Assembly (NCBI GenBank): GCA_964421195.1
Contig: CAYQWL010000001.1
Coordinates: 5,203-69,202, forward strand
From: an uncultured bacterium
GTDB lineage: Bacteria > Muiribacteriota > UBA9980
Direction: 5' to 3'
DNA length: 64,000 bases
Shown here: positions 4,521 to 61,133 of the stretch, one piece after another
Layout: each line of letters opens with the position of its first letter
How positions within the stretch are numbered: position 1 is the stretch's first letter
The notes under the pieces: model-generated
The model's database searches: none
Seen by the model: the letters and a program-made list of their open reading frames with translations, nothing else
What the model was told of the DNA's origin: nothing
Made by a program: the position numbers and the translations under genes

Positions 4521-4549
4521 TTGCATTTCATCTTAAAATTATGTATAAT
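4521..4549 (+). promoter_or_regulatory. Near-consensus σ70 promoter upstream of the TldD/PmbA operon (TTGCAT-17 bp-TATAAT)
   Basis: -35 TTGCAT at 4521-4526, a 17-nt spacer, and -10 TATAAT at 4544-4549. RBS GGGAGG at 4602-4607 and ATG at 4614. Confidence 0.55.
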
Positions 4550-4613
4550 ATATATAATAATTTTAAAAAATATAATAATTTTAAAATAAACAGAATAAAC
4601 CGGGAGGTATGAA

Positions 4614-12955: not shown

Positions 12956-13043
12956 GGCCGGCCCCCTTTCTTTACCCGAAAAAAGTAAAAAAATAGAAAA
13001 CCGAAATTTCACGAATTGAAAAATTTAATTATAAATAAATATA

Positions 13044-22706: not shown

Positions 22707-22788
22707 AATTTAATACCTCCTGCTATACCTATTTTAGTGTATTTTTACACCAGAATTAAACTTTAAATCATTAATAATAAGGCTTTTA

Positions 22789-41500: not shown

Positions 41501-44500
41501 AAGAGTAAGCGCAGATTTTCCAGATTCGGCAATTACGCCGGCCTTAGCGTCCGCGCCGCCGTCGCCCGCAAGCAGCATTTTAACCGGCGTATTCAATTTT
41601 GGAACCGCCGCATTGTAAAATTCGGACGCGGCGCCTATATTGCCGTTTGAATCGCCGAACGCCGCGCAAACTTTATCGCCCGGCAAAACTTTTAACGCGA
41701 ATTCGTTATCGCCTGAAATAAGCGCCGGCCCGACATCTTTCCAGATATTTCCGCCGTCGGTCGAAACTAATGGCACTAACCCGGACGCTTTACCCGACGG
41801 GTTTTTAAATGTAATTTTGCCGCCGGCCGCGTCAACGAAGAAATCGCCGTCGGCGATCATATTATTGCGCGGTTTCATGACCGGCTTCGATTTGGCCGTA
41901 AGCCATGTGTTCCCGCCTGGTTCGGCATAATACAACTCCACTTCATTTGACGCGCCCGGCTCATAAGCGAACACATTGTCTTCCGCGCCCGCGCTTATCT
42001 TTCCGGCTTCCGCGCCGTTGATATAAACGGTATAGCCGTCGAGCGCGCCGCCGTTATTATTGACCGCGACTTTCTTAAGCGCGGCGTTTACCGTAAAATC
42101 GCCTGCGACGGCACCCGTTAAACGATTCGCCGCTTCTTTTAAGATATAATCATTCGAAGCAAACGATACATTGCCCGTCTTCCATTCAAGTAAAGCGACG
42201 CGCACGCCGTTTCCGGCCTGGATATATTCATTCATCGGAAGAATGTTAATGCCCATATCACTCACGGCCTCGGTCGAATTCCAGCCCGCGCCGCCGTCGG
42301 TCGAATAAAAAATATTAAACCCGGTCAGCGAGCCGTCGGAATTATCGACCGATATCTTTTTAGCGTGGCCTTCTATTTTATAAGTTCCCCCGCCCGAAAT
42401 AGCGTTTACGGGAGCGGCGGCGGGCGCCGCGCCTGATTTTTGCGTCAGCGAAAAATTACCCTTTTTATCGCGGACCGCCATTTTTATTTTACTCGCCGCG
42501 TTCATCGTGATATCAAAATTCTGCCCGATTCCGGCGCTGATAGTTCCGAGCGTCCGCCACGACGCGCCGTCGTCAACCGATATATATATGGAAAATCCGT
42601 CGCGCGCGCCGTCGAAGTTAGTTATTGCAACCTGGCCAAGCAGCGCCTTTATGCTGAAATTGCCGAAACCTTCGGCAAGGTTTTCAGGCGCGCCATAAAC
42701 AAAAACTTTAGAAGCCTGGCTGACGCTCTTATCTTTATAACTGAACGCGACCGATAAAATATCGCCGGCCGCAGACTGCCAGGGCAGTTTATACGATACC
42801 GTAGGGCCGGCCGAATATTCTACGCCGCTCGATGCCGCCGGTGAAAGAAGTTCAGCTTCGCCTGAATTAAGCGCCGCGATTATCGAAATATCTGAGATGA
42901 ACCCGCCTGAATTATTAAAAATCAATTCATTGGAACGGCCGTCATATATAAAATTACCGGCCTCAGGCAATGACGAATTAAACGGCGCGGATTTTACCGC
43001 TACGCCGCGCGCGGGCTGAACGTAAATATCGTCATCGGTATAATCAGGCGTTCCATTATTCGACGATAAATAATAACTGATATATTCGCCGGCGTTCCAT
43101 GCCGACCTTACATGCAGTGGTATTACAAATTTACCGGTATCATCCGGCATTATCGGTTCTAAAAAACCTTCGGTAAGCAAAACGCCCGCCGATTCATTCG
43201 CCCCGGTATAAACGTGCACGGAAACGGCGTTGTCATTAAACATCAGCAGCCGTGCCCTTTCTTCAATACCGAACGGCGCGCTCATAACTATCGCGCCCAG
43301 CGAAGCGTCGAACGCCCAGCGGTTCGGAGTATTCTCCTCATCCATGCCGTAAACCGGCGGCTTAAAAATTATGCCGAGTTTCACTATTGTGGAATCATCG
43401 CCTTTGCGTCTCACATAAATTTCACTGCCATGGCTCACTCCGCTAAGATCCACTTCAGCGTCAGCGCCGGAATACCATATCCATTGTTCATCCGGAATTC
43501 CGCCGTTAAGACAGTATTCCATATCCAGCGGAACGGCCGATAAATAAAGCTTGCCGGCGCCGTCTTTAAGCGATATAGTATATAACCCGGCCGCGCCGCC
43601 GCCTTTTTTTATAATCAACTGTTCGCCTTCGTTTATATCTTTTTTAGTCAGCGGTGAGCTTATAGAATTGCCGGCAAGATCGGTAAATGTTATCATAAAA
43701 TCGAAATCAACGGCGAATTCGCTGCCGTCGAGATAACGCGCTATCGTCCAGTTGCGATCGTCGGTATTGCGAATAGTAACGGGTTTTCCCATCATAGACG
43801 CCGTTACGTTTTTAACCGCTTCGTCGGTTACAAGCGAAATCACTATCCTGTCGCCGAGTTCGGCTACCGACGGGCCCGACGCGTTAGACGAAGCGGCCGA
43901 TAATTTTACTCGCCGCGGCGCGATCGTATCTTTTTTCACCCGCACGCTTAATTCGCCCTTCGATTCGCCGTTCGCGCCGGCCGCTTTTATTTTAATTTCA
44001 TTCGTTTCACCCTCGACTAATTTTGATATATCAACCGGTAAAACCGCCATATTATTAACCGCATTAACCGACGAAACGCCGTCTAAGACGTTATTTCCGG
44101 AAACGGCGGCCGTAATATGCCAGCCCGGCGCCGCCGCGACGATAATATCGAAGTCGGAATTAACGGCCGTGCCGCCGCGCTTCGGCTCTATTTCAAACAT
44201 CGCCAGAGGCGGATCAGTGGATACTTCGCCCGTTATTTCAAACGAAGCATTGGAAATATCGGAATCGGCCATGCCGTCTTTAAACGCTATAGCATTAACT
44301 ACCGAGCTTTTATTAAGCATGAACGACGATGAATAAAACTCGCCGGTTGAAAATGAAGGAAGCCTGCCGTCAAGAGTAAATTTGATCAAAGCGCCCGGCG
44401 TGGCGCATGAAATAGACACCGCCTGCGGCTTATCGTAAACGCCGCCGGCCGGCCTTATAACGGGCGCGGCAACCTGCTCGCGCGGCGAATTATCTATGTC

Positions 44501-46474
44501 GTAATACGCCGTCGTAACCGAAGAATCGGCCATGTTATCCGCGAAAGCGGCCGCGTTGAGCTCCGCGCTTTCTTTTATCGATACCGGCGCGGAATAGAGA
44601 ATCCCGCTCGTTTTTTTAGGCGCGCTCCCATCGAGAGTATAGCGGATAAATGCGCCCGGCGTGTCCGTGGTTATAGTTACGGTTTGTGCGCGGTTATACG
44701 AACCGCCCGCTATATCAAAACGCGGCGCCGATACTTTCGGCGGCGGCGTCATAATACGGTATGAGGCCGTCATAACCGAAGACTGCGAACCGTTTAAAAC
44801 CGCGACGGCATTTATTACCATATTCGAATTCACTAAAATTCTATCCTGATAGATCGTTCCGACGCTCGCTGAAGGCGTCGTACCATCGGTCGTATATCTG
44901 ATGAAGGCGCCCGGCGTTTTAGTAACGAGCCCGACTTTAACGGCCTCATCATAACTTCCGGCGGGCGGCCCCGCGACAGGAGCAGCTGCGGCGGCGGGTT
45001 TCAGTATAACCACCTTCGAAGAGTCCGTAGTCACGACGATGATGCCGCTCGATGTCTTCCCGTTCACGCCGATAACCGGTTCGATCGAAAAGCTGAAAAC
45101 CTTATCGGCCTCTTCTACATCGACGCGGGCTGCATATTCGGAATCGGATATTTTATAAACCGCCGCTTTACGGCCGAATATATAAACTATGGGTTCTGAT
45201 GCGAGCGCCTTATCGCTATTAATTGACAATGTAACGGTTTCACCGGCGGCGGCGGCCGAAGGCGAAACCGAAACCGATGTAAGACGCGGCGGATTCAAAT
45301 CAACCGGCGCCGAAGTCATTTTTGAAAAAACTTTATTTATGACCGCGGAAGTTGAACGGGAGTCGATAATCGTTCCGCCGATATTAATCGAAGTGGTTAT
45401 ATTCGGAACGCTTTTAACGATATCATAGTTTTTAACGCAATTAGTAAAGCAGTCAAGCGTGCCGCCGATAAAGCTCGTTTTCGACTTAAGCAGCGATGCA
45501 AGGGTTTTTTGATTATCTTTAGATACGCTGTTCGAATTAAAAACTTTATTTACCGTCGTAACCGCGTTCGAAAACTGATTAATGCTCGATGAATCTTTGA
45601 ACCATGAGCTGACAACTTTATTGACGGTCGAAATATTCGTCACCGCCGGATCTTTTGAAGAAAATACTTTATTACTTGAAGATTGCGAACTAAAAATCTT
45701 TTTAACGGCCGATGAAAAGAAATTAATATTCGAACTCATATTATTTTCGATATTAGCCATCGAAAGAACCGTTGTCTGACTGTTTATTTCGAAATCTTTA
45801 ATCGTCAGCATGCCAGAGCCGTAATTAATAATGCGCGAAACTCCGCCGGCAGCGGGAGAAGCCGCCGCGGCTGGATCGGAAGCAAAAAAAGATTTGTCAG
45901 GCAGGCATCCGAGAGGCGCTAAAAGCATCGCTATGCCGTTATTTTTATCGACAATCGCCAGCGTGGCGTCCGGCGTATTATCATTGACGGGAATATTAAT
46001 GCTGTAATTCAACTTGCCGTCCGCGGCGTTTATTTTATCTGAACTCGCGATTACCGCGCCCGAATTAAGCAGGCGGCCGAAATCGCCGGAACTCTGATAC
46101 GACGGCGCATAAGCGGGACCGCTCATTAAAGAGGCGGACGCCCCGCCCGCAATCGACCTGCGAAAATCCATATAGGCTTTATTTTCGAGAACGACAACCG
46201 AAAGTTGCGATAAATCGGCCGAACCCGCGCGCGAAGCGCCGGGCGCCGAAAGCGATGAAGCATCGAGGCCGAGCGAAACAGGATCTATTTCGCCTTCTAG
46301 CGTTATAGACGGGCCTGACGCGGACGCGCCGCCGGGTGACGGCACCGAATCGCCGCCCCCGCCTCCGCCGCAGCCGGTAAAATTAAAGACTAAAACGGAA
46401 ACAATCACCAGAACTATTATATATTTTAACGCGCTTAACGAATTATGCGCCGAATTATATATTTTTTTATTCAT
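38552..46474 (-). CDS. Giant surface lipoprotein A (2,640 aa): lipobox + Gly-rich linker, 3 CHB_HEX_C-like domains, 3×~115-aa Ig/FN3-like repeats, many β-sandwich modules, C-terminal L-type-lectin-like domain
   Basis: Lipobox 'FTGC' followed by GGGGGGDSVPSPGG. 'PGAFIRYTTDGTTPSASVGTIYQDRI'-type units ×3. Triplicated 'APLWVAGYP...EYAVYAVAEDGYEN' units. C-terminal 'ADGIIFMATKY...' concanavalin-like signature. RBS AAGGGGG. Confidence 0.85.
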   Translation of the reverse strand: MNKKIYNSAHNSLSALKYIIVLVIVSVLVFNFTGCGGGGGGDSVPSPGGASASGPSITLEGEIDPVSLGLDASSLSAPGASRAGSADLSQLSVVVLENKAYMDFRRSIAGGASASLMSGPAYAPSYQSSGDFGRLLNSGAVIASSDKINAADGKLNYSINIPVNDNTPDATLAIVDKNNGIAMLLAPLGCLPDKSFFASDPAAAASPAAGGVSRIINYGSGMLTIKDFEINSQTTVLSMANIENNMSSNINFFSSAVKKIFSSQSSSNKVFSSKDPAVTNISTVNKVVSSWFKDSSSINQFSNAVTTVNKVFNSNSVSKDNQKTLASLLKSKTSFIGGTLDCFTNCVKNYDIVKSVPNITTSINIGGTIIDSRSTSAVINKVFSKMTSAPVDLNPPRLTSVSVSPSAAAAGETVTLSINSDKALASEPIVYIFGRKAAVYKISDSEYAARVDVEEADKVFSFSIEPVIGVNGKTSSGIIVVTTDSSKVVILKPAAAAAPVAGPPAGSYDEAVKVGLVTKTPGAFIRYTTDGTTPSASVGTIYQDRILVNSNMVINAVAVLNGSQSSVMTASYRIMTPPPKVSAPRFDIAGGSYNRAQTVTITTDTPGAFIRYTLDGSAPKKTSGILYSAPVSIKESAELNAAAFADNMADSSVTTAYYDIDNSPREQVAAPVIRPAGGVYDKPQAVSISCATPGALIKFTLDGRLPSFSTGEFYSSSFMLNKSSVVNAIAFKDGMADSDISNASFEITGEVSTDPPLAMFEIEPKRGGTAVNSDFDIIVAAAPGWHITAAVSGNNVLDGVSSVNAVNNMAVLPVDISKLVEGETNEIKIKAAGANGESKGELSVRVKKDTIAPRRVKLSAASSNASGPSVAELGDRIVISLVTDEAVKNVTASMMGKPVTIRNTDDRNWTIARYLDGSEFAVDFDFMITFTDLAGNSISSPLTKKDINEGEQLIIKKGGGAAGLYTISLKDGAGKLYLSAVPLDMEYCLNGGIPDEQWIWYSGADAEVDLSGVSHGSEIYVRRKGDDSTIVKLGIIFKPPVYGMDEENTPNRWAFDASLGAIVMSAPFGIEERARLLMFNDNAVSVHVYTGANESAGVLLTEGFLEPIMPDDTGKFVIPLHVRSAWNAGEYISYYLSSNNGTPDYTDDDIYVQPARGVAVKSAPFNSSLPEAGNFIYDGRSNELIFNNSGGFISDISIIAALNSGEAELLSPAASSGVEYSAGPTVSYKLPWQSAAGDILSVAFSYKDKSVSQASKVFVYGAPENLAEGFGNFSIKALLGQVAITNFDGARDGFSIYISVDDGASWRTLGTISAGIGQNFDITMNAASKIKMAVRDKKGNFSLTQKSGAAPAAAPVNAISGGGTYKIEGHAKKISVDNSDGSLTGFNIFYSTDGGAGWNSTEAVSDMGINILPMNEYIQAGNGVRVALLEWKTGNVSFASNDYILKEAANRLTGAVAGDFTVNAALKKVAVNNNGGALDGYTVYINGAEAGKISAGAEDNVFAYEPGASNEVELYYAEPGGNTWLTAKSKPVMKPRNNMIADGDFFVDAAGGKITFKNPSGKASGLVPLVSTDGGNIWKDVGPALISGDNEFALKVLPGDKVCAAFGDSNGNIGAASEFYNAAVPKLNTPVKMLLAGDGGADAKAGVIAESGKSALTLRPGVMLNAGESLKVTLSNGGAVTIAAKASLDGVIPVFGASTPGIIYETGAPGNGNAVTGSFNLNNPGGVPVAITGTVEVMAVYTDALGNSAPESKAYIAADKIAPLWVAGYPAIAAPEYFKLKVSLAVNEDGKIYLICLKASEAAPTAAQVKAGQNAFGASVAAGMKAALDYTVEGGALAHIFAGLDNNTEYAVYAVAEDGYENLQTQPAVVKLKTLNNVAPIWVADYPKAETPDFNKIKVSVKDNETGSVYLACLKSGAAALTAAQVKAGIDASGAALNAAMKAVIAMDRSDSEAVHIFSGLESAVEYDIYAVAEDEYGAIQANPAVVTMKTIDNLPPAWASGYPQGQPTGYTSVRLSATVDKKALIYAVCLSANAPEPSVAQVITGKNASDVELASNLKGTVEVAANNIAYINFTNLGVGTSYDIFSAAVNEYGIAQAAVSKTRVNTIALIPPSVSSVQTSADGTKILVKFNKIISSSLPAAPAGFTATLGSSYDDVVTAVALNADDKSIVELTLTKAVGSDMSTVKLAYTRGASGVKCTEGLELSNFAARAVTNNSTFVSLAKFEIAAIAAQKTGVNFSITVTAKDANNNTNTVYDSGNGVYESVTANLTNSTNKISPTVTGNFTNGVWTGNVKISKAKNGDTITASKGAITTPAPPSFNVGLSPVTNVIVSDSGGNIKIDWTNPPDTDTGGMDIEYIGPIGSGTYLVNWFSGPQTSYTPNPVLSASNAYKFTLKLKDSGFTASTTASWYRGTPVLLLKDAVFEGNNMVLTPEAEGKNGIAVFENKVDVTKDFTVDFTFKIENPSGGGADGIIFMATKYTPSELQAFAPAQWINSYINNCFYVDFDTYLNGGFDTQAHSISIKYPDDQSAPLGTDPTLNIQKMTKTDREWLPGNTTTEFHATSEHPLRYVRIKYTAVGNEWKVYYSQSAIAGEGDVKITHSYNPANISLIDGKYLYLGVSGITGAAYEKHSLTSLTISN

Positions 46475-46557
46475 AAAATTAACCCCCTTTTTAAAGTAAA
46501 GAAATACAATTAACTGCTAATATTTAACCGCCAGTTCTCTGAAATACGGTCAGTTTA

Positions 46558-49500
46558 TTAAGGGTTAATTTTAATAATATACCAGGAGCGATAGGGAAGT
46601 AGCATTTCAAATTCATTTAAATCATAAACATATTTACCAAAACCGCCGGCATAAATTGAGCCATCCGTATCCACTGCCATGCTCATAACCGTATCAGTGA
46701 ATAAAACGCCAACCGAACTCCATTCACTTCCATTCCACTTAGCAATTTTTCCCAGAGTGCCATATTTTTGTATATTTTTATCAGCATCCGCCGGAGGGGC
46801 CACGCCGTTTAAATTTTTGAAACTTCCCGACGCATATAAGACGCCCTTCGAATCGATGGCGATATCATAAACCCAGTGATCAAAACCTGAACCGAGCGCT
46901 TCCCAGGACGAGCCGTTCCATTTAGCTATATAATTAACATCAACGCCTCCCGCTTTCTTAAACCAGCCGCCGGCATATAAATTACCGGCATTATCACATT
47001 TTAAAGCCACAACGCGTTCATCCATGCCCGTGCCAAGCGTATTCCATTTCGTGCCGTCCCAGTTAGCTATGTATTTGCCGTTATCGCTATAAGCGGCATA
47101 ATTAAAAGCGCCGCCGATATAAACATTATCATTTTTATCGATCGCTACGCTATAAACCACGTTACCGCCAACTTTATAAGGAGAAGTGGTGCCTTTACTA
47201 ACCGCGCCTTCGCCGACGGCCGACCATTTTGCGCCATCCCACTTAGCAAAATAATTAACGGCTATACAATCGCCATTACTCTGCTCGGCAAGATTAAAAT
47301 AACCGCCGACATAAACATTATCTTTCGAATCACAGGCAATAGCATCAGGATAACAAGTAGTATTATAACGTTGTATGCCCGCTTTATTTTTGTCGTCCAT
47401 TCCGATACCTTTACCGAGCGCCGACCATTTTGCGCCGTCCCATTTAGCTATACCGTTGACTTTAACCCCTCCGATTTCAGTAAAATAGCCGCCGGCGTAT
47501 ATATTGCCTTTTGAATCCGCCGCTAAAGCAGTAATGTTGGCATAATTAGTTACGCCGGTGCCGAGCCCGGACCAGCTCTGGCCATCCCATTTAGCGATCC
47601 TGTTTATCACGGTGCCAACATTGCTATTTATCTCATTATCGTTTATAACTTCGAGTGCGGCTTTAGTAAAAGAGCCGCCGGCATATATATTGCCGCGCCC
47701 GTCGCTTATAACTTTATAAACGGTGTTATTAAATCCGCCGCCGCCGACGCGCTCAAAATTTTTCGCTTTTTTCAGCGAAATTTTTAACAGCGCGGGCTCT
47801 TTCTGATTAATAGAAAATGAACGAACTACGATGAACACCGAATATTCAGCGTTTGCCGGCAGATTTTTGATAGTAAACGAAAGCTCGGTATCGGTATAGA
47901 TAGCTTTTATGCCGGACGCCGTGAGCGTTACACCCTCGATCGCTCCATTTACAACATTTTCCGAAGGAACGCTTTCAAGTCCGGCGGATGCGGGCACGAC
48001 GATATAATAAGCCGTGCCGTAGCGGTTTACTTTAAGCGATAATTTAACCGAAGTATCAGAATCTTTTTCAATTTTTGGATATCCAGGGCTCCATGCCGCG
48101 CTTGAACTTATTATCGTAAACGGTTCGGCGCATGCGGCCGTAGCGCGGTTACCAACTTTATCGACGACGCTTACGCTGATTTTCCCCGTAGATATATCAA
48201 GCGATGGTATCAGCCAGTTATAGGAACCGGTATTTTCGAGACCCGCTTCTACGGTCGCCCAGCTCAATCCGTTATAAAACGATATTGTAACAGGCTTTTC
48301 AGGCATTCCGTTAGAATCGGAGGCCGACCATTTAATCATTATTCTATAACCGCCGTTCATTTTATATCCTCCGAAGTCGTTCCGCAACTTGACGACCGGC
48401 GGCGTGGTATCTATTACAAAAGTATTGCCGTCAACTATATCGATCGCCGTGCCTTTTTCATCTATAAGCCCGACGAACGCGTCGCCATCCATAAAATCAG
48501 AACCATTATTATCGTTTATTACATAATCATAATACCAGGTTTTTTTGTCAGCGCCGGGTTCCATCCACTTTTGCTGAACATCGGCTTTGCCCGGCTGGTC
48601 TATCGATATTCGCGGGCCTTTGGCGCCTTCATAATCTTCGTTGAACGAAGCCGTGATACGCATTTTTCCGGCGCCGGCCGGGTTCGCGCTAAATGAAAGT
48701 TTAGCGTAGTTAGGTATCTTCGTTCCAACCAGGAATGTTTGATTATTCGGGCGTTTTGAAATATTGCCCGCCGGATCGGTTACGGAAGAAAGCACGACCA
48801 CCGCGCGTCCGTCTGCGAATTCGCCGGATTCTCCGGTTTTAACGAAATAATCATAAGTCCACAAGGAATTTGTCGCGCCGGGGCTCATCGCCGTATCGGT
48901 GAGTTCATAAGAGCCCTGCTGGAATATCGATATATACGGAATATAGCCTTCGGCGAGCGGTTCGGAATATTCGGCCGTTATAGTTAGTTTGCCCGGCCGC
49001 GCGGGATTAGCGCTATATGAAAGCCAGACGCCTGGCTGTCTGGTATCGATGGTAAAATGCCTGTTCGACGGCTGGCTGAAAATTTTTCCGAATTCGTCCG
49101 CTACCTGCGAGATTGAAACCGTCACATCGCCGTCAATATATTCACAGCCATTATCAGGTTTTATAGAATACTCATAAGTCCACACCCGACGGTTATTTGA
49201 AGGCGACATCTTCTGATCTCTGATATATTCAAGACCGGAAGTAATTATATTAATCCCTGGAGTAACGCCGTTTTTAACGTCCTTTGAAAATACCGCCGTT
49301 ATAATAAGTTTGCCTTCTCTGAATATATTCGAATCAGTCTGGTTTTCGTTGCCTCTGAGCAGCTGCTTGCCTCTATAGATTTCACTGCCATCGGCCGCGC
49401 GCCGCGGGACCGTCGGTACGAACGCATAAGAAAGCGATACGGCCGGCGAGGATGTATTAATCGTAAACGACGCGTTAGTAGGCTGCTGAGCGGCATTGCC

Positions 49501-52431
49501 GGCGGGATCGGACACTTCTGAAAGGCTTACCGATGCGATGCCGTCGATATATTTAGAGCCGTCGAATGCATTGACGTAATAGTCGTAATACCAGACGGCC
49601 GGAGCGGATTTATCGCGCGTCATCGCGGCGTTTTTAATATCTTCGGAACCCGGCTGGTCTATGCTGATTTTAACGGCGCTGCCGTCCGCTGGCAATTCCG
49701 AATACGAGGCCGTTATGCGCATAACGCCTTCTCCGGCGGGATTGGCGCTATATGAAAGCGACACGGAAGGCCGCGTGGTATCGATTATAAACGATACGCT
49801 CGATTTAGCGGAAAGCCCGCCTTTTTGGGCCGCGGCGGATACCTCGATAATATAACTGCCGTCTTCGCTCACAGATGCGCCTTTTTCAAAAGCGGCCGGA
49901 GCGCTTCCAAACTTAGTGAGCGTCGCGCTCGTCGTAACGCCATCAGTTTCGTTCCATGAAAGCGTAACGGGTTTATTATAATAAGCACCGTTCACCGCGC
50001 CCGTTATCTTCGGCGCGGCCGGACCGGTTTCAGTTTTAACGCCTTCTTTAGTAAAAGTAATCGACGCTTTACTCGTAAGCGGATTCGAATATTCGAATGA
50101 ATTGTTATAAACTGCCGTAGCGGTTATTTCAAGCGTATATTCACCGTCTTCTTTTATGATCGAATTTTTCGAATAATCGGCCGGCTGGCCGCCTTTTTTG
50201 GATAATTTAGCCGAGTACGAAGCGGCGGGGTCTTCGCTCCATGTAACGTAAACGCCATCTTCCTTCGTAAGCACCGACAGCGCGGGCGACTGCGGCGCGG
50301 CGGTATTGACCATAAATGAAATATCAGTTATATTGGTAAGGCCGTTCGCCGCGCGCGCCGTTACTACGAGCCGGTTCAGGCCGTTATACGATATCGGCGT
50401 GCCTTTTATATACTCGACGGGGCCGTTTTGACCGGCGGCATATAAAAACGCTTTAATAACCGCGCCGCGCTGGTCTTCCCAGCTCGCCGAAACCGGCGCC
50501 GTATATCCGCGTTTTGAAGCGACGCCGGTAACTACGGGCTTCGCCGGAGCGTCGGCGTTGATCGTAAAATTAAGAACCGAAGCGGATTTTAAGCCGTTCG
50601 ATTTCTTTTGCGCGTTGAGCTCTACACGATAGGAACCGTTCGCTGTGATAAGCGCGCCGTTTGAAAGCTGCTGCGGATTGCCATTATCTTTTATAACAAA
50701 CGCCTTCGTCGTTACGCCTAAAATTTCAGTCCATGAAATTTTAACGCCTTCAGAAACCGTGATGCCTTCTTCAGCGCCGCTTATTACAGGCGACGCCGGA
50801 GGCGTCTGGTCGATAGTAAAATTAATTTCAGTTTTCGAATCGAGGTTATTCGACATTTTAACGGCCTGCACAATAAGCCTGTAGCGGCCGTCTTCGTTTA
50901 TCGGATAACCGTTGCCGTAATTAAGCGGCGTCTGTTCGTCGTCTTTATAAAGATGCGACGAATAGAAAACTCCGGGCGCTTCCTTCCATGACGCTTTTAC
51001 GCCCGCCGCGTAAACCGCTTCGGCTTTAACGCCTTCGACCGCCGGCATATCAGGCGGCAGAGTATCTATCGTAAACGATAATTTAGAGCGGTTGGTAAGG
51101 CCGTTGGATTTCTTTTCAGCCTTCACTTCAAGCGAGTATTTGCCGTTTTTAGATATTAACGAGCCGTTTTTAAATTCAACGGGATTGCCGCCGTCTTTTT
51201 CGAGCAATGCGTAATAAGCGACGCCGTCTTCTTCAGGCCATGAAAGCGTTACGGCCTTCGCGCTTACCGCGCCTTCGAGCGCGCCCGATACTTTCGGAGC
51301 GAGCGGGCCGGAATAAAATCCGTCGGCCATACGACTGAAACGCATCGTCGATTTAGTAGAAAGACCGTTTAAAAGTTTTTTCGCGGTTACTTCGATTACA
51401 TATTTACCTTCTTCGGATATTTCGGCGTTTTTATCATAAGCCGCAGGCGCGCCGCCGTTTTTAGCGAGCGTAGCCGTGGTAGAGCATCCCTGCTGCTCGT
51501 TCCAGCTTACCACCGTCGGGCCGTTAAGCGGCGATTTTTCAACGATAGTTCCGCCGTAAGAAGGAGCGTTTTGCCCTTCGGCCGTTTTATTGATCAGGTC
51601 TATCAAAGGAGCCGCAGGCGAAGTTTTATCGATTATGAAAACCGCCGTGGTCGAGCTCGAAAATCCGTTCTGCTTTACCGCTGAAAGCGTGAATTCATAA
51701 CTTCCGTCGTCAATAACGGCTGTACCCTTCGAATATTCGCCGGTCGCGTCATTATCGCGCTTTATTTCGGCTTTATAATTTATACCGGATAATTCAGGCC
51801 AGTAAATAATCACCGGCGCCGAATAAACCGCGCCGTTAGTAAACCCGGCGAATTCAGGGACTTCAGGCGCCTTGCGGTCTATCGTAAAGCCTATGGTTTT
51901 AGAATTCGAAACGCCGCTTATATCGTTTTTGACGGTTAATTTCAGCGTATAATAGCCTTCTTCTGAAATTTTTTCGCCTTTTTTATAAACCGTTTCTTTA
52001 GAACCGTCGCGGGTATAAACGGCCGACGACGAAATGCCGGCTTCGTCCTGCCATGATGCGATTATATCTTCCGACGTATAAACGCCGTCTTTAACGCCGG
52101 TAATTTCAGGCACAGCCGGGACCGAGCGGTCTATTTTAAATTTAATCGACGCGCTCGACGATCTGCCGTTAGATTTATTGGTCGCGGTCACTTCAAGATA
52201 ATACGAACCTTCGAGGGTTATCGGTGAACCCGATTCATAAAACAGAGTTGTTTTTTCATCTTTAAACAATTTAGCGAGATAATTAACGCCTTCTGACTTT
52301 TCCCATGTAATGGTAACATTTTCAGAAGTAACGGCGTTATTGTCTATGCCCTTTAATACAGGCGCGGCAGGTTCGTTCTGATCGAGCGTAAATTTAACTC
52401 TCGAAACGGCTTTAAGCCCGTTATATTTCTT
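46558..52431 (-). pseudogene. Distal 1,958 codons of giant gene C, in frame downstream of an internal TAA. The ORF track reports 46558..52269 from an internal TTG. Content: β-sandwich modules, 4 'LSYSANPA' Ig-like units and a C-terminal β-propeller (IAKWDGxxWSxLG repeats).
   Basis: I translated 52270-52431 on the minus strand. There is no stop and the repeat module continues seamlessly ('EVTA*KKYNGLKAVSRVKFTLDQNEPAAPV...'). The β-propeller carries about eight 'IAKW(D/N)GxxWSxLGxG...GNxYxGGxF' blades. Confidence 0.7.
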
Positions 52432-55400
52432 TTACGCCGTCACTTCGAGTATATACTCGCCGTTTTCAATTATAGACGAATTTTTCTCATAAGGCGATTC
52501 TATATAACTCTGCGTGCTGGTCGTAGTAATTGCCTGCACTGAATTTTGAGACTGCTGCTTGAAATACTCTTCAAGCCGGCTTACAAAAAGTTTATTTCGC
52601 TTAAGTGTCGGGGATATATTTTCATCAAAAAACGAAAGGAATTCATCATTCCGGCCACGCATGATCATATCATAAAAATACCAGTCATTATTAGTCAACT
52701 GGAGCCTGTATATAGCCTCCAGAATATCATCATTCTGGCCATTGCCGCTCTGCTCCGTCTTAGTCTGAACGGTTGTTACTGATCCTGATTTAGTAATGCG
52801 CGCCGTGGTTTCGCAGCCGTCCTGGTCGTTCCACGACAATTTCAACTCGCCGCCGGCGGTCTCGCCGTTTTTAACGCCGCTTATAACCGGCGCGGCTGGC
52901 GATTTTTTATCTATGGTAAACGATATAACGCGCTTAGAAGATAATCCTGATTTAGGCTCTTTAGCTTCGAGTTCAAATGTGTACGAGCCGTCTTCGGTTA
53001 TCGCAGTTCCTTTTTTATAATCCGCGAACTCGCCGCCGTCTTTTTTAACGCGGCCGCCGGTAATAACGCTCGTTAAATCCTGCCAGTTAAGTGAAACGTC
53101 AAATCCCGTAACGGCCCCGTCTTCGACGCCGCGCACCTGCGGAGCTTCCGGCGCCACGAGTATCTGCATGGCTTCGCGGTTAAACGACACGGACGCTTTA
53201 GTTTCAAGCCCGTTAGCGGAGCGTTTGGCGGTAACCGTTACTATATAATTGCCTTTTTCCGATACCGCGCTGCCTTTGGCATAATTAGACTCCGCGCCGC
53301 CGTCTTTTGAAATTTTAGCCGTATAAACGACGCCTTCGGCTTCTGACCAGCTCACATAAGATTTGCCGTCTTCATCTTTTACGGATACGATCGGAACTTC
53401 AGGCGCGTTCATATCGATTATAAATGAAAGTTTTGAAGAAGACGAAAGCCCGTTCGTTTTTAACGCTTTAACCGTAAGAATATAACTTCCGTTTTCAGCC
53501 ACGGTGGAGTTTTTTGAATAAGGTTCGGGACTTCCGCCGTTTTTAGAAAGGCCGGCGCTGTATTTAATATCTGAAACTTCCTGCCATGAAAGTTTAACCG
53601 CGACGGCGGACACCGCGCCTTCGGTTATGCCCGTTATGACCGGCGCGGCTGGCGCATCGGTGTTAACTGTAAAATTAACCTTTTTAGATGCGCTGACGCC
53701 GGTCGAATTTTTCTTAGCGCTCAATTCGAGTACATAAGAACCGGATTCGCTTACCGGCGTGCCTTTTTTAAATTCAACGCCAGCCGCGCCGTTTTTATAC
53801 AACTTTGCGCCAAGCGTCACGCCTTCGATTTCATCCCAGGAAGGCTTAACTTCATAACCGTATATTCCATTTTCAGATACGCCCGTTATTTCAGGCAATT
53901 CCGGCTGGCGCGAATCTATCGTAAAATTAACCGATGATTCCGAAGTCAATAAATTACGGATGTTTTTAACGCTCACTTCGAGAGTGTAGGCGCCTTCTTC
54001 GCTCAATTCATAATTTTTAGCGTATTCAATTTTTAACCCGCCGTTTTTAACAAGACGCGCGCTCGATTCGCACCACTGTTGATCGTTCCAGAAAAGTTTA
54101 ACGGGGCCCGCCGTCACGGCGCCTTTTACAACGCCGGTTATAAGCGGCGCTGAAGGCGCGGTTTTATCGATAACGAATTTAACCGCCGAACTGTTCGACA
54201 GGCCTGTGCTGTTTTTAACGGCCTCGACCGTAAGGCTGTACTCGCCTTCTTCTTCAATTACCGTATCTTTTGTATAGTAAGCCTCATTGCCGCCTGTTTT
54301 AATTAATTTAGCGCGGGTGGTAACGCCTTCCTGCTCGTTCCAGCTAATCTGGACTTTACCGGCGGTATATGCGCCGTCGATTATGCCGCTTATTGCCGGC
54401 GCGGCGGGTTTCGCCTTATTTATCGTAAATTTTACGAGCGTTTTAGCCGTGCTGTTATTTAACGCGCGTGTCGCGCTTACTTCAAGAGAGTATTCACCGT
54501 CTTCAGTTATGACCGCGCCGTTTTGCAGTGCAGACGGAACGCCGCCGTTTTTAGAAATATAGCTCTGCAGCGATACTCCCGTACTGTCGCCGGCCGCTTC
54601 CCATTTAATCGTAACGTCATACGGCGTTATCGCGCCGTTTTCTACGCCGGAAACTACGGGCGGCGCAGGCGCTTCACGATCGATAGTAAACGATACGCTT
54701 TCTTTTGAAGTCTTCTGATTGGCGAGTTTCAGCGCCGTCACTTCTACAAGATATTTACCGCTCACGCTTATCATCGTGCCGCGGCCGTATCCGACCGCCG
54801 TGCCGCCGTTCTTACTTATAACGGCTGAATAAACTACACCGGCTTCCTCGCGCCACGACAGAACTACGTCGCGCGTTATCTGATCGCGCTTAGATTGAAT
54901 ATAACTATCTATCCATGCCTGATTTTCTTCCCGCATGTGAATATGATCAAAAATTATGCGCCTGCGTATATATGACAGATCAAGCTCGTCGTCAAGACCG
55001 GTTATTACAGGTTTTGCCGGAAGCGCCGAGTCTATTTTAAAACTGACCGCCGCCTTATTTTTAAGCCCGTTAAGCGCTTTTTCAGCGATTACTTCGAGAA
55101 TATAAGAGCCGTCCCGGGTAATTTGCGTATTTTTTTCGTAAAGAGACGCATCGCCGCCGTCTTTTTTAAGCAGCGCATAATATGAAACGCCCGAAACGCT
55201 TTCCCATGAAGCGAATACGGCATCGCTGTAATAACCGCCGTTATTAACACCGGTAATGACAGGATAATCCGGGCCGGCGTCAAATCCGGCGGGCGTTCTG
55301 TTAAAATAAAGAACGGCCGTAGATGAAAGCCCGTTGCGTTCTTTCAGCGCGGTTATAACGAGACTGAACTTCGACGCCTGCTCGTCGTCTATCTTGATAA

Positions 55401-58400
55401 CCGAGCCTTTTTCATAGTCGAATTCCTTCGATGAAGATACTTTTATCTTCGCGCTTATCTTAACGCCTTCTACTTCAGGCCATTCAAGGGCCGATTGGCC
55501 GTTTCCCTTATCTACATACTTAACTTCAGGCACGCGGGGCGCCGTATTATCTATTTCAAAACCGACCGCGCTGTCCTTTACAAGTCCGTTTTTCTTCCCG
55601 GCCGTTACTTTAACGCTGTATTTACCATTAGCAGCTACAGGCGAGCCTTTTACATAAGCGTAAGACCGGCCGCCTTCAGGCGTTACAACCGCGCTGTATT
55701 CATAATCTTCACGCGCTTCCCACGATACATATACCACGCCCGCGTTCACGGAACCGTCTTTCACGCCGCTTATTACGGGCGCTTCAGGATATACGCTATC
55801 GACGCTGAATTTTATAGTTTTTTTGTTGGATACGCCCGTAACATTATTTTTAACAGTGAGCGTTAAGCTATAAGAACCATCGCCTTCTATGAACGAGCCT
55901 TTTAAATATTCCGACGCCGTACCGCCGTTTTTCGAAATTAATGCGGTAACGCTTTCGCCGTCTTTTTCTTCCCAGGCGATGCGCGGCCCTGAAGCTAAAA
56001 TATCGCCGTCTTTTACGCCGGTTATAACCGGCACTTCAGGAACGGTCTTATCTATGGTAAATGAAAGCGACGACATATTCGAAAGCCCGTTAGATATCTT
56101 TTTCGCCGTTACTTCAATAACATAGGCGCCTTCCTCGCTTACTTCGGAATCTTTATTAAATATCATAGCGGCGCCCTGGTTTTTATATAGTTTCGCAAAA
56201 TATTCGACGCCGTTTACTTCCTGCCATGAAAGATTAACCGACTTCGCCGTTACCGTCTTATTTTCAACGCCGCTTATTACGGGCGCATCGGGTTTTTCTT
56301 TGTCTATAGTGAAAGATACTTTCGATACAGTTACCATCAAATTGCCGGTTTTTTTAGCGTAAACTTCTAATGTATAAACGCCTTCGTCTTTTATAGCGGA
56401 ATTTTTTTCGTATTCAACGCTGTCCATCAATGACAGCGAAGAAGTATTTTTAAATAATTTCGCCGTAGTTTCGACTCCGGCCTGTTCGTTCCAGCTCACT
56501 TTAACTTCAGACGCGGTTATCGCGCCTTCAGTTATACCGCTAATTACGGGCGCGGGCGGGGCTGTTTTATCGATAGTGAATGTTACGAAACTTTTCGAAG
56601 TCAGTCTGGTAAACGAATCTACCGCTTCCACTTCCACGATATAAACGCCTTCTTCATTTACCGGCGCGCCTTTTTCATAAGACGCGGCGTTACCGCCGTT
56701 TTTCTTAATAGAAGCCTTCGTGGTAGTGCCGTCGGCGGTTACCCATTCAATTTTTACGCTCTTTCCGACCACGGCATTATTTTCGACGCCTATGATTTCA
56801 ACTGCGCGCGGACCGACGACAAGATCGGTGAATAATCTGTTGAAATTAGCCTTAGCTATCGCTATAACGCCGTTATCGACGCGGCGCGCGGTGAGCGTAA
56901 GCGCGTATGCGCCTTTTTCATTAACAGGCGTTTTCATTATATAATCGACGGGCTCACCGCCGTCTTTTGCCAATTTAGCCGAATACGATACGCCGGGCTG
57001 TTCTTCCCACGAAACAACCGAAGCGCCGCCTTCGTCGGCGACCGTTATAAACGGCGTATCAGGGGCATCTTTATCGATTTTAAATTTTATGATTTTTGAT
57101 TTTTTTAATCCGTTCGGTTTAATTGCCGTTACGGTAACCGTATAAGAACCGGGCAATGATATTACGCTGTTTTTAAGATATCTTTCAGCCCGGCCGCCGT
57201 TTTTTGAAATTTCGGCGCGATAAACGATTTTATTCTTAGCGTTCGGGCCGTATAAAGGCGCGCCGAAATCACTTTCATCCCAGGCGATTCTTACTTCCGA
57301 TGAAGTAAGCGCGCCGTCTTCTATACCTGAAACCACAGGCGCTAAAGGCTCACTCTTATCAACGACGAATGAAATCGAACGGCTGTTTAGAGTGCCGGTA
57401 TCGTTTTTCTTAGCCTTTAGCGTCAAAACATAATTTCCGTCTTCACCGATCGGCGTTTTCTTGATGTATAAAGACGCTTCGCCGCTGTTTTTGCTTAATT
57501 CAGCCGTAAGCGTTACGCCTTCTATATCGTCCCAGCCGGCCGCGACTTCAGATGCGTTCTGGCTGTTATCGGCAATACCGCTTATATAGGGAACTTCGGG
57601 TACGCTCGAATCGATTTTAAATGGAAGTTTTTCAACTGCCGAAAGCCCGTTTTTCTCGTTCACCGAAGTTACTTCAAGCGCGTACGAACCATTCTCGGTT
57701 ATTTCATAGCCTTTAGCGTAATCAGCTTTAAGGCCGCCTTCTTTTATAAGCTTCGCCGTCGTTTTAGTCCACAGGGCATCCTGCCAGTAAAATATAACCG
57801 GCCGGGCCGATATTTCATCGGTGCCTATGCCTATTACGGCCGGAACTACGGGCGGCGTACGGTCGATCACGAAAGCCGCCGAAGCGCGATTGGTCGTATT
57901 ATTAGCCGTTTTTCTGACCAGCACTTCGAGAGTATATGCGCCTTCAACGCTTAATATCGAATTTTTTAAATATTGCGACGCTTCATTATTAAATATTATC
58001 TGCGCAGAAGATGAAACGCCTTCCTGCTCGTTCCATGTGAGCGAAACTTCATAAGGCGTTATGGCGCCGTCTTTTACGCCCGAAATAACGGGCGGCGCGG
58101 GCGCGGCGTTATCGTTGCGAATCTCATAAAACGCCGTTACCACTTCGGAATCGAGCATTTTATCTTTAACGGCGACCGCTTTGAATTGGACCGAACGGTT
58201 TATAGTAATCGGGCCGGAATATATTTCGCCGTTTTCAGCGCCGGGCGTTGTGCCGTCGGTGGTATATATAATTTTTGCATCTTTAACCTGAGTAATAATT
58301 TTTACCTTGAATTCGTTATATGAAGTGTATTTGCCCTCCTGCGGCGAAAAAACCGGCGCGGCAACTTCTTCGAGCACCGGCCCGACTATGTTTACATCAA

Positions 58401-60474
58401 AAAATCCGGACGCCGCGGCCGAATCATTCATACCTTCTTTTATAACTACGGCTTTAACGGTTACCGGTTCCATAATAACGAGCGGCTCGCTATAAACAAA
58501 ACCGTTGTTATACGACGGCGCGCTGCCGTCAAGCGTATATTTGATAAGCGCGCCTTCTACGGCGCTTACTATAGCGACGCTCTGCTTAGAAATAAACGCT
58601 CCGGGAGCAGGATTAAATACTGGCGCGGGAGCAGTTTCCGAAGCTATATTTACGTCGTAAAACGCCGCCGTAACCGCGGAATCAAGCATGCCGGCCTTGA
58701 ACGCGGCCGCTTTCAGAGACATACGTTTATCGATAGCGATCGCGCCCGAATAAAGCGCGCCGTTTGTTTGCGTCGGCAGCGTGCCGTCGGTAGTATATTT
58801 TATCGACGCGCCCGCCGTGGCGCAGCTTATCGCAACGCTCTGCGCGCGCGAAAACGATCCGCCCGCGAAGCTGAATACCGGAGCTTCAACCCGCGGCTTC
58901 GGTATGCTTATTAAATAAGGCGCGTTATTTACTATCGAAGATATGCCGTTAAATACGGCCACGGCCTTAATCGTCGTATCAGAAGCGAGCGTGACCGGCG
59001 ATTCGTAACGCGTACCGTAAGACGGCGACGGCTCGCCGCCGTCGAGCGTGTAATAAATTTCGCAGCCGGGAGTTTTTGAGTAGATTGAAACTATCTTCGC
59101 GCTTTTATAAATGCCGGCTGGCGGATCGAATACAGGCGGCTGGACCGTAGTTACGCCTTCTTCTACCTTCGGTTTCGCGCCATCGGTCACTTCGGTTACA
59201 TCGACGCCTTTCCTGCCGTTTTCACCCACTAAATTGCCTATCTTGAAAGTGACTTCCTTCGGGTCGGAGCCGAGAACGCTGGTTACCGCTTTATAAGTAT
59301 TCGTATCAACCCGGACCGCTTCGACGGTCCTGTTGTTAATAACTACAACCGGAGGAACTATCAAAAGCCGGCTGGTAGTAAACGATAACTGGAGTTCATC
59401 GCCGATTCTCACCGTTTTCGGAGTTAAAACCACGCTTGTAACCGATGGCGGCTCGTTATCGGATGCGCCGCCTATATTGTCCGCGCCGCCGTCTATTACG
59501 GCTACCGTCGAGCGCCCGTCTATGCGTGTGCCGTTTAAATCTATGCTGGTCGTTATTCCAAGCTCTACGGCATTTTGCTGGACTTTTAAATTTTTAAGGG
59601 TTAATACATAATCGGAAATAACGCCCGCCGCGCTCGGCACGACTAATTTCTCGCGCGTATTTTCGAATACGGCGCTTTTTTCCGCCGCGCTCATTTCGTT
59701 GGTAACAAGAACCGCTTTAATAGCATCGACGGCCTTAGCCATTTCGCTGATAACGCCCGAACCCGCTTTATTTTCTATAACCGTATCAACTGGCAGGCGG
59801 TCGCCCGAACCGAGCACGCGCACGACAACCTCCTGAGAACCTTCACTGCCAGTCAAAGTAACGAGCGGAACGCTTATTTCCATCCTGTTGTCATTGGCAA
59901 GAACGGCGCGCGCCGTCGATTTTGAGTCTATCAAAACGCCTTTCACATATATCTTTTTCACTTCTTTCGGAATATCCGAATACGCGGGCGCCTGTCCCGG
60001 AATGCATGACAGCACCACTTTATTCAATATTTTGCTCTTTATGGTTATAAACGGTATCTTACGGCCTTCGCCAATATTGATAACGGTTCTGTATTTATAA
60101 CGATATAACGAACTTTCGCTTGTTTCAATGACCACAGGCGCGAGCTCACGGGAAAGCGCCGGATCGTCGCGGTCGATAACAGCTATGGTAAATTCTTTTG
60201 AATCGCCGAATTCGACGGCGCGATTAGCGCCCGCCGGTGCGTCAGGCGCTATTATCGCCGTATTTTGGGCTATTTCATCAGGTATGGGGCCTTCTATTAT
60301 AAGCTGCTTTTCAGCGATGTCAGGCTGCGTTCCGCCGCCAGTCGAAGGAACTCCACCGCCGCCGCCGTCGCCACAGCCCGCTAACGGTAAAACAAATAAA
60401 ACAAATAAAACAAATAAAAATAAAATACGCATTAAAACATAAGGTTTACAATTTTGAAATAATAAATTTTTCAT
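52432..60474 (-). CDS. Giant surface lipoprotein C, proximal 2,680 codons: lipobox, Gly-rich linker, 4 CHB_HEX_C-like domains and about 21 tandem ~90-aa β-sandwich modules. It ends at an in-frame TAA.
   Basis: Signal 'MRILFLFVLFVLFVLPLAGC' then GDGGGGGVPSTGGG. Four 'IKYTTDGTLPTQTNGALYSG'-type units. Modules of the form 'VSWxEQEGVxYxAKLxKNGG...YxKGxxIxEEGxYxLEVTAxKKxxNGLSxxSxVSFTIDKTxPxAPVIxGV'. RBS AAGGAG. Confidence 0.85.
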   Translation of the reverse strand: MKNLLFQNCKPYVLMRILFLFVLFVLFVLPLAGCGDGGGGGVPSTGGGTQPDIAEKQLIIEGPIPDEIAQNTAIIAPDAPAGANRAVEFGDSKEFTIAVIDRDDPALSRELAPVVIETSESSLYRYKYRTVINIGEGRKIPFITIKSKILNKVVLSCIPGQAPAYSDIPKEVKKIYVKGVLIDSKSTARAVLANDNRMEISVPLVTLTGSEGSQEVVVRVLGSGDRLPVDTVIENKAGSGVISEMAKAVDAIKAVLVTNEMSAAEKSAVFENTREKLVVPSAAGVISDYVLTLKNLKVQQNAVELGITTSIDLNGTRIDGRSTVAVIDGGADNIGGASDNEPPSVTSVVLTPKTVRIGDELQLSFTTSRLLIVPPVVVINNRTVEAVRVDTNTYKAVTSVLGSDPKEVTFKIGNLVGENGRKGVDVTEVTDGAKPKVEEGVTTVQPPVFDPPAGIYKSAKIVSIYSKTPGCEIYYTLDGGEPSPSYGTRYESPVTLASDTTIKAVAVFNGISSIVNNAPYLISIPKPRVEAPVFSFAGGSFSRAQSVAISCATAGASIKYTTDGTLPTQTNGALYSGAIAIDKRMSLKAAAFKAGMLDSAVTAAFYDVNIASETAPAPVFNPAPGAFISKQSVAIVSAVEGALIKYTLDGSAPSYNNGFVYSEPLVIMEPVTVKAVVIKEGMNDSAAASGFFDVNIVGPVLEEVAAPVFSPQEGKYTSYNEFKVKIITQVKDAKIIYTTDGTTPGAENGEIYSGPITINRSVQFKAVAVKDKMLDSEVVTAFYEIRNDNAAPAPPVISGVKDGAITPYEVSLTWNEQEGVSSSAQIIFNNEASQYLKNSILSVEGAYTLEVLVRKTANNTTNRASAAFVIDRTPPVVPAVIGIGTDEISARPVIFYWQDALWTKTTAKLIKEGGLKADYAKGYEITENGSYALEVTSVNEKNGLSAVEKLPFKIDSSVPEVPYISGIADNSQNASEVAAGWDDIEGVTLTAELSKNSGEASLYIKKTPIGEDGNYVLTLKAKKNDTGTLNSRSISFVVDKSEPLAPVVSGIEDGALTSSEVRIAWDESDFGAPLYGPNAKNKIVYRAEISKNGGRAERYLKNSVISLPGSYTVTVTAIKPNGLKKSKIIKFKIDKDAPDTPFITVADEGGASVVSWEEQPGVSYSAKLAKDGGEPVDYIMKTPVNEKGAYALTLTARRVDNGVIAIAKANFNRLFTDLVVGPRAVEIIGVENNAVVGKSVKIEWVTADGTTTKASIKKNGGNAASYEKGAPVNEEGVYIVEVEAVDSFTRLTSKSFVTFTIDKTAPPAPVISGITEGAITASEVKVSWNEQAGVETTAKLFKNTSSLSLMDSVEYEKNSAIKDEGVYTLEVYAKKTGNLMVTVSKVSFTIDKEKPDAPVISGVENKTVTAKSVNLSWQEVNGVEYFAKLYKNQGAAMIFNKDSEVSEEGAYVIEVTAKKISNGLSNMSSLSFTIDKTVPEVPVITGVKDGDILASGPRIAWEEKDGESVTALISKNGGTASEYLKGSFIEGDGSYSLTLTVKNNVTGVSNKKTIKFSVDSVYPEAPVISGVKDGSVNAGVVYVSWEAREDYEYSAVVTPEGGRSYAYVKGSPVAANGKYSVKVTAGKKNGLVKDSAVGFEIDNTAPRVPEVKYVDKGNGQSALEWPEVEGVKISAKIKVSSSKEFDYEKGSVIKIDDEQASKFSLVITALKERNGLSSTAVLYFNRTPAGFDAGPDYPVITGVNNGGYYSDAVFASWESVSGVSYYALLKKDGGDASLYEKNTQITRDGSYILEVIAEKALNGLKNKAAVSFKIDSALPAKPVITGLDDELDLSYIRRRIIFDHIHMREENQAWIDSYIQSKRDQITRDVVLSWREEAGVVYSAVISKNGGTAVGYGRGTMISVSGKYLVEVTALKLANQKTSKESVSFTIDREAPAPPVVSGVENGAITPYDVTIKWEAAGDSTGVSLQSYISKNGGVPSALQNGAVITEDGEYSLEVSATRALNNSTAKTLVKFTINKAKPAAPAISGIIDGAYTAGKVQISWNEQEGVTTRAKLIKTGGNEAYYTKDTVIEEEGEYSLTVEAVKNSTGLSNSSAVKFVIDKTAPSAPLITGVVKGAVTAGPVKLFWNDQQWCESSARLVKNGGLKIEYAKNYELSEEGAYTLEVSVKNIRNLLTSESSVNFTIDSRQPELPEITGVSENGIYGYEVKPSWDEIEGVTLGAKLYKNGAAGVEFKKGTPVSESGSYVLELSAKKNSTGVSASKKVNFTVNTDAPAAPVITGITEGAVSAVAVKLSWQEVSDIKYSAGLSKNGGSPEPYSKNSTVAENGSYILTVKALKTNGLSSSSKLSFIIDMNAPEVPIVSVKDEDGKSYVSWSEAEGVVYTAKISKDGGAESNYAKGSAVSEKGNYIVTVTAKRSANGLETKASVSFNREAMQILVAPEAPQVRGVEDGAVTGFDVSLNWQDLTSVITGGRVKKDGGEFADYKKGTAITEDGSYTFELEAKEPKSGLSSKRVISFTIDKKSPAAPVISGVKNGETAGGELKLSWNDQDGCETTARITKSGSVTTVQTKTEQSGNGQNDDILEAIYRLQLTNNDWYFYDMIMRGRNDEFLSFFDENISPTLKRNKLFVSRLEEYFKQQSQNSVQAITTTSTQSYIESPYEKNSSIIENGEYILEVTA
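60389..60420. repeat. 9-bp tandem repeat (AACAAATAA ×3) encoding the (FVL)3 core of the giant-gene signal peptide
   Basis: The C of each unit falls at 60393, 60402 and 60411 (period 9). Confidence 0.6.
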
Positions 60475-61133
60475 AAAAACTCCTTAATAAAATATTTTTT
60501 TATTTTTTTAATTTATTTTTCTATCTAATTTTACCTGATTCATTAATAAGCCTGAAGCAAAGGTATAAAATACAAAAACAACTGCAAATAAAATAAAACT
60601 TATAAGCCATAAAAATACACCATCGTTTTTAAAAAAATCACATTTTTAAAAACGACAAATTAATAAAAATAAAATAAGGTAACGAAAAACATCATAAGTT
60701 AATGACACTAACATAAATAAGCACTTAACGAAACGAATTATTATGAGCATATTTTTTAATATAAAATAATACGTTATATATTTATTTTATCGCTTATAAT
60801 TTCTAATGGTTATTATAAAAAATTCACATATTAAAACTACTCGCTTAAACTTTAAAAAAATTATAATTTTAATAAAGTAAAATTAAAATGAATTATACTA
60901 AAATATGATAACAAATACAATATTTTATATTTTTTATTTTTTTATTTTTTCCGACATTATATTAACGAACCTGCTATAAAAACTAAGAAAACACACGGAA
61001 CCTGGAGTCGATAATCAAAATCCTTTTAAACACCTTTAAATATTTTATTAATTTTCAAAAATTGACTTTTCTTAGAATAAACTAATCAATATAATACGGC
61101 AAACATTAAACAGACTCACAAATAATAAAAAAA

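Follow-up and report, generated by a model that had tools for sequence, protein, structure and literature searches.

The stretch of DNA analysed here, further referred to as the window, comprises 64,000 nucleotides (nt) from an uncultured bacterium of the Muiribacteriota (UBA9980; assembly GCA_964421195.1, contig CAYQWL010000001.1, positions 5,203 to 69,202 of the forward strand), and carries on its minus strand a gene for a giant surface lipoprotein (46558..60474), i.e. a putatively lipid-anchored protein that contains a long array of immunoglobulin (Ig)-like repeats. Its frame is continuous but for one TAA, at codon 2681 (52432..52434, minus strand). We hold it probable that this TAA is a very recent nonsense substitution, CAA (Gln2681) to TAA, by which the protein is truncated. 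Comparison with the orthologous loci in related genomes shows that the gene was ancestrally one open reading frame (ORF) and that the stop is a derived state found in this assembly only.

The minus-strand translation of 60474..46558 comprises 4,639 codons, two of which are stops, namely the internal TAA (52434..52432) and the terminal TAA (46560..46558). From the ATG at 60474 onwards there are thus 4,637 sense codons, 2,680 upstream and 1,957 downstream of the internal TAA, which is the only interruption; with the stop read as Gln the protein would measure 4,638 amino acids (aa). The minus-strand letters around it are ...GAA GTG ACG GCG TAA AAG AAA TAT AAC GGG.... In an ORF listing the frame is split into 52432..60474 (2,680 aa, ATG start) and 46558..52269 (1,903 aa, TTG start), the first start available to the latter being an internal TTG at 52269, 55 codons past the stop. 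The original prediction, made from the letters of the window and its ORFs, that a single in-frame TAA divides one giant lipoprotein gene and that the distal ORF begins only at an internal TTG, is hereby borne out. The open frame directly behind the stop can not be a product of chance, because in random sequence a run of 1,957 open codons is, by our own estimate, expected at a probability of about (61/64)^1957 ≈ 1e-41, and because this frame is moreover 90% identical to that of an orthologue, with a ratio of nonsynonymous to synonymous substitution (dN/dS) of 0.205.

One genome per GTDB species was scanned with a peptide that spans the junction, which yielded two loci, L001 and L002, both located in metagenome-assembled genomes (MAGs) of uncultured bacteria. 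The L001 orthologue is a single intact ORF of 4,629 aa, colinear with the gene in the window and identical to it for 89.9% at the nucleotide level (13,837 columns) and for 89.6% at the protein level. The L002 orthologue is likewise a single intact ORF, of 5,443 aa, and is colinear at about 53% aa identity over 4,218 residues. The codon at the position of the stop is TAA in the window, CAA (Gln) in L001 and CAC (His) in L002, where it lies within ...EVVAHKKYNGLKA..., and in the codon alignment some 40 codons on each side of the stop are nucleotide-identical between the window and L001. Because L001 carries CAA and L002 carries CAC, while the flanks match those of L001, the ancestral codon is reconstructed as CAN and the stop as the result of a single C→T transition from CAA (G→A on the plus strand, at 52434). 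The origin that had been proposed initially, an A→T change in an AAA (Lys) codon, is contradicted by these orthologous codons. The accompanying claim that the stop sits exactly at a consensus Lys of the repeats holds only loosely: Lys is the commonest residue at that position, but it accounts for just 10 of the 34 motif hits in a regular-expression scan of the repeats, a few of which are not true repeats. The more general claim, that one is dealing with one interrupted gene and not with two genes, is supported: both orthologues are single ORFs with a sense codon at the site, and no orthologue starts a gene there. The inspection of orthologous loci in related MAGs, which had been suggested as a check, thereby reveals no two-gene arrangement in either L001 or L002.

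The divergence between the window and L001 bears on the age of the stop. Both halves of the gene are by the measure of dN/dS under purifying selection (0.157 upstream and the earlier given 0.205 downstream). When L002 is used as the outgroup, 60 derived amino-acid changes fall in the lineage of the window and 50 in that of L001 for the upstream part, versus 35 and 34 for the downstream part (Fisher p = 0.65), and in this comparison the constraint on the cut-off half is not visibly relaxed. The absence of a lineage-specific excess of changes implies that the downstream constraint predates the mutation. Neither a second stop nor a frameshift was found in the downstream 1,957 codons, in which 4.4% of all possible point mutations would create a stop. 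Because there is no downstream excess of amino-acid changes and no second lesion, the stop is judged to be very young; its age is bounded at about 0.2-1.1% neutral divergence, depending on the assumed indel rate, where the synonymous divergence (dS) to L001 is 0.27-0.36. What this leaves is a stop that should be either very recent or absent from the DNA.

The part that is still translated (the proximal 2,680 codons, 52435..60474, minus strand) is composed of a lipoprotein signal, an N-terminal region of unassigned fold, four CHB_HEX_C_1/Fn3_assoc domains and about 20 Ig-like repeats, the last of which is cut short. The start codon at 60474 is preceded at a distance of 5 nt by a Shine-Dalgarno (SD) sequence, AAGGAG (60480..60485, minus strand). 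The lipoprotein-type signal peptide, MKNLLFQNCKPYVLMRILFLFVLFVLFVLPLAG|C (60373..60474, minus strand), was read from the translation; it ends in the lipobox LAGC with Cys34, on which we base its presumed identity as a lipoprotein signal, and is followed by a Gly-rich linker. The combination of Cys and Gly-rich linker recurs in L001, in L002 and in a paralogue that is encoded next to the gene in the window. The hydrophobic core of the signal peptide also holds a perfect 9-nt tandem repeat, TAAAACAAA, in 3.6 copies (60388..60419, minus strand), which encodes FVLFVLFVL and in which a change of copy number would alter the length of the signal peptide with the frame kept.

Pfam matches in the upstream half comprise CHB_HEX_C_1 (1.2e-59, four stretches) and Big_13 (4.8e-11), the four CHB_HEX_C_1/Fn3_assoc domains being situated at residues ~445-790, and Ig-like matches of the Big_13 type occur in both halves. 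The repeat register gives an Ig-like (Big_13-like) array of about 30 units of ~84 aa each, which spans residues ~790-3570 (49765..58107, minus strand) and is strongly diverged at the DNA level. As the best DNA self-match inside the gene is merely 72 nt at 82%, the repeats are taken to be old. The distal 1,957 codons that are cut off (46558..52431, minus strand) hold about 10 of the Ig-like repeats, four SYSANPAG-type modules (~115 aa each), an Fn3-like region and, at the C-terminus, a β-propeller of the Reg_prop/SBBP type (residues ~4239-4638; 46561..47760, minus strand; Pfam Reg_prop 2.9e-11, SBBP 7e-07). The original prediction of a distal half made up of a β-propeller and Ig-like domains is in line with these Reg_prop, SBBP and Big_13 matches. 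The β-propeller likely constitutes the distal tip, which the truncation removes. With its tandem array of Ig-like β-sandwiches the protein fits the class of giant Ig-repeat adhesins (BIg/Big_13), and from its lipobox and domain types we infer a surface location and a binding role. The three orthologues of this clade (~4,600-5,400 aa) can be described as one unit, built of a lipid anchor, four CHB_HEX_C domains, some 30 Ig repeats and a tip formed by the β-propeller.

An 86-aa non-Ig insertion (52492..52749, minus strand) interrupts the stop-bearing Ig repeat and ends 19 codons before the TAA. The insertion is kept at the same place in L001, and in L002 it is longer, N/M/Y-rich and of low complexity. 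The 300-codon block around it has a dN/dS of 0.40, the highest value outside the two C-terminal blocks. A second Ig repeat has a non-Ig insertion as well, of 42 aa (54868..54993, minus strand); both insertions look partly helical by prediction and have a GC content of 0.40-0.42 versus 0.477 for the gene.

As regards the consequence of the mutation, ribosomes would end at the TAA and the product would be a lipoprotein stalk of 2,680 aa with an incomplete terminal Ig domain, which would lack the remaining Ig repeats, all four SYSANPAG modules and, at the tip, the β-propeller that is presumed to be the binding end. The untranslated tail of 5.9 kb would probably be poorly expressed via transcriptional polarity. 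The allele would then be a loss-of-function or truncation variant, as follows from termination at the TAA and the loss of the distal parts, and thereby an incipient pseudogene, either fixed or segregating in the sampled population. In agreement with a gene interrupted by a nonsense mutation, the stop lies inside coding sequence that is continuous in the orthologues, and the sequence downstream of it has no start, ribosome-binding site or export signal of its own.

Several points weigh against a real and truncating allele. The TAA is present on one assembled contig only (108,355 nt, NCBI); the loss of function is deduced from the sequence; bacteria are reported to read through in-frame stops at a low level (PMC9122581, PMC7918605); and the T might be a one-base error in the sequencing or consensus of a low-coverage metagenome assembly, in which case the organism has CAA and an intact gene for 4,638 aa. 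We consider such an error unlikely, yet it is the alternative to be taken most seriously. A total lack of downstream decay is equally predicted by it. Exactly one codon departs from sense and nothing downstream has decayed, the flanking sequence is the same as in L001 with its CAA, the allele is known from a single assembly, and L001 itself stems from a co-assembly at ~8x coverage, so that the MAG of the window may be similarly shallow. On the other hand, the change is a substitution and not an indel, and it is located outside any long homopolymer. Misassembly or repeat collapse is improbable because the DNA sequences of the repeats have diverged too far, as the best self-match given above testifies. 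The 64 kb contain no further gene that is visibly broken, and none of the 32 remaining ORFs listed (120 aa or longer) is an obvious split gene. A gene of 14 kb is furthermore a large target for mutation, and as a rough prior real disabling mutations are one to two orders of magnitude commoner per 64 kb than stop-creating consensus errors in short-read assemblies. The weighing of a real allele against an error leans on such rough priors.

Additional copies of the locus were sought in several ways. An exact-protein look-up in a gene-position index, for both ORFs, the neighbouring ABC exporter and two housekeeping proteins, returned no record of any of them and thereby no second copy. The proteins of the window are represented in the public protein collection, each of them on a single contig. 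A metagenome scan with a 31-nt pattern that has an N at the mutated base gave 0 matches, and one with a three-sequence alignment of the junction gave a single distant match of 27% identity (L003), which was left unused. A word-indexed protein search with a 350-aa junction query returned no match. This result is a false negative, because the 4,629-aa orthologue shares a 90% cluster with the 2,680-aa ORF of the window; the repeats probably saturated the list of 8,000 candidates in that search. With respect to SRP192927, which concerns the environment of a related MAG, no papers were found in the literature.

Quite improbable, in our view, is a stop that is real but leaky, such that occasional UAA readthrough, or a suppressor tRNA encoded elsewhere, yields a small amount of full-length protein alongside a plentiful short form and the stop acts as a dial on expression. 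Constrained in-frame stops and low-level translation of pseudogenes have been reported in bacteria (PMC7918605, PMC9122581), and the downstream frame is intact, as a leaky stop would have it. However, the position of the stop is not conserved, both orthologues having sense codons, so that no selection for a stop can be demonstrated, and the downstream constraint predates the mutation. The context is also unfavourable: bacterial readthrough has mainly been reported for UAG next to a C (Feng et al. 2022, PMC9122581), which UAA followed by A does not resemble, and the codon that has been described as leaky is TGA (Belinky et al. 2021, PMC7918605). The 64-kb window is devoid of tRNA genes, and TAA ends 28 of its 33 ORFs. 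The likeness to the in-frame stops and 'pseudo-pseudogenes' of the latter two studies is confined to a single stop in an otherwise constrained-looking gene; unlike in those cases, the constraint on the present gene predates the mutation, and its stop is lineage-specific and of the least leaky kind. Programmed readthrough or recoding is not supported, in view of the sense codons in L001 and L002. Some low-level background readthrough may nevertheless occur at the TAA.

An even more speculative variant, to which we attach very little credence, is that the TAA is a maintained allele which specifies a short, anchored stalk without a tip, rare readthrough providing a trace of full-length protein, and that it functions as a slow switch at the population level. 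If true, a maintained nonsense polymorphism of this kind might for instance serve to evade phages or predators that recognise the β-propeller tip.

The downstream half lacks the signals by which it could be made on its own. There is no SD sequence before the TTG at 52269, whereas the real starts at 60474 (AAGGAG) and 46474 (GGGGG) do have one. Neither ATG nor GTG occurs in the 55 codons that follow the stop, and the first 60 residues of the downstream ORF are not hydrophobic and contain no segment that resembles a signal peptide. A scan for promoters and terminators around the junction returned nothing above shuffled expectation in support of an internal transcription unit, and an Rfam search of the window gave no match. 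When the downstream 1,199 aa were compared to 1.84 billion representative proteins, the only homologue that starts at the junction-proximal TTG was the window's own ORF (100% identical). The next two best matches, P0002 and P0003, begin with non-Met residues, which suggests that they are partial gene calls. The stop is also situated where a genuine gene boundary is not expected, as it falls within a β-strand: it corresponds to residue 70 of the modelled repeat unit, inside the second-to-last strand (61-71), and the final strand (77-86) would be missing. A genuine two-gene arrangement, a TAA that is reassigned to sense or a phase-variable switch at the site is therefore extremely improbable, even though gene calling finds two long ORFs here, which appear in the public calls as separate proteins of 2,680 and 1,903 aa, given that the orthologues are single ORFs, that the break lies in the middle of a domain and of a strand, that the downstream part lacks SD, ATG and signal peptide, and that no other representative protein starts here.

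Codon reassignment was excluded because TAA is the terminator of 28 of the 33 ORFs, 721..1674 among them, and occurs only once in frame in this gene; the earlier remark that TAA is the normal terminator and reassignment unlikely proved right in this respect. The population-level on/off variant that had been put forward as a possible explanation lacks a mechanism, because there is no tandem or simple-sequence repeat at or near 52432 that could act as substrate and the change is a point transition; a phase-variable switch was rejected on these grounds, and the allele can at most be an ordinary polymorphism. A methylation hot spot was also considered, as GCGC is part of the ancestral GCGCAA, but HhaI-type enzymes methylate another cytosine than the one that mutated, and this speculation was dropped.

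The closest precedent for a recent truncation of this kind is the ebh gene of Staphylococcus aureus, which is likewise a giant, repeat-rich surface gene and which consists of one ORF in most strains and of two (ebhA/ebhB) in Mu50 and N315 (PMC3868527). The two proteins are not homologous: Ebh is a Gram-positive protein with repeats that form helical bundles (as for the related Embp, PMC7587433), in contrast to the Ig-repeat lipoprotein studied here. Both genes were split by one small change, which is a frameshift in the case of ebh and a nonsense substitution in the present case. In addition, ebh is controlled by the two-component system ArlRS, and the orthologues of the present gene adjoin a gene pair for a histidine kinase and a response regulator. 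In Listeria monocytogenes, natural nonsense alleles of inlA truncate a surface adhesin and segregate as ordinary polymorphisms. The truncation of inlA removes the anchor, so that the protein is released, whereas the truncation in the present gene would leave the N-terminal lipid anchor in place and take away the distal tip.

At the structural level the protein is reminiscent of SiiE of Salmonella (BIg domains) and GhpA of Aureispira, whose long stalk is built from tens of β-sandwich domains in tandem (~85-100 aa each) and bears a distinct module at its distal end. One repeat unit was modelled with AlphaFold2 (AF2) from an alignment of 20 repeats of the window's own gene, which resulted in an all-β structure with a predicted local distance difference test (pLDDT) score of 94.6. 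The fold of this confident model is similar to that of PKD, Fn3 and BIg domains, among them the ones of SiiE and GhpA, and the model superposes on SiiE BIg (TMq 0.57-0.67) and on GhpA fragments, where none of the fold matches is significant (best E 8.6e-03). Proteins of the SiiE type have a C-terminal type I secretion signal, whereas the present protein has an N-terminal lipobox. An assignment to the RTX/type I-secreted adhesins (SiiE, LapA type) was accordingly rejected: there are no RTX or calcium-binding repeats among the Pfam hits of the giant protein, and the neighbouring exporter, which is of the NHLP-bacteriocin type, does not occur at the loci of the relatives.

The stop is an ordinary case: the relatives have the gene intact, and the window's copy is interrupted by one nonsense substitution of very recent date, or by an erroneous base. 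Its value is in the first place one of annotation, as the public calls (2,680 and 1,903 aa) should be merged into a single gene of 4,638 codons that is marked as interrupted. A real allele would add a further example of very long surface-protein genes that collect disabling mutations, and it would open no new question.

The genomic context of the gene differs between the window and both relatives. A histidine kinase and an OmpR-type response regulator are encoded directly upstream of the giant gene in L001 (1..2443) and L002 (1..2536). This two-component system is absent from the window (60378..64000), which instead has an AT-rich spacer of 660 nt and an ABC exporter (61134..63926) of the NHLP-bacteriocin type (TIGR03797, 853 bits) that has no counterpart at the loci of the relatives. 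Because the nucleotide homology between the window and L001 ends at 60378, 32 codons into the gene, a rearrangement breakpoint is placed at the 5' end of the giant gene. The loss of the regulatory neighbours is a possible sign of a locus that is being let go; it fits such a process and does not prove it. Upstream of both intact orthologues a shared motif, TGCAATAAAAATGCAA followed by AATGC, was observed (L001 ~2140..2200, L002 ~1850..1900; alignment A2, columns 220-290), which could be a candidate binding site of the adjacent response regulator and which is not recognisable in the window.

Downstream of the interrupted gene and in tandem with it lies a second giant lipoprotein gene (38552..46474), the paralogue mentioned above, which encodes 2,640 aa with an L-type-lectin-like C-terminus and shares only the CHB_HEX_C region with the first (36% aa identity). 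Together the two giant genes (38552..60474) stand out by a GC content of 0.48-0.50 versus 0.32-0.43 for most of the remaining window. Elsewhere in the window two adjacent genes on the minus strand (21585..23829) encode low-complexity proteins that look secreted, one with PSPYTPPQ repeats and the other with repeated DGYYKDV / VWVDGGYEK motifs, and an ankyrin-repeat protein of 816 aa is encoded as well (10562..13012, minus strand).

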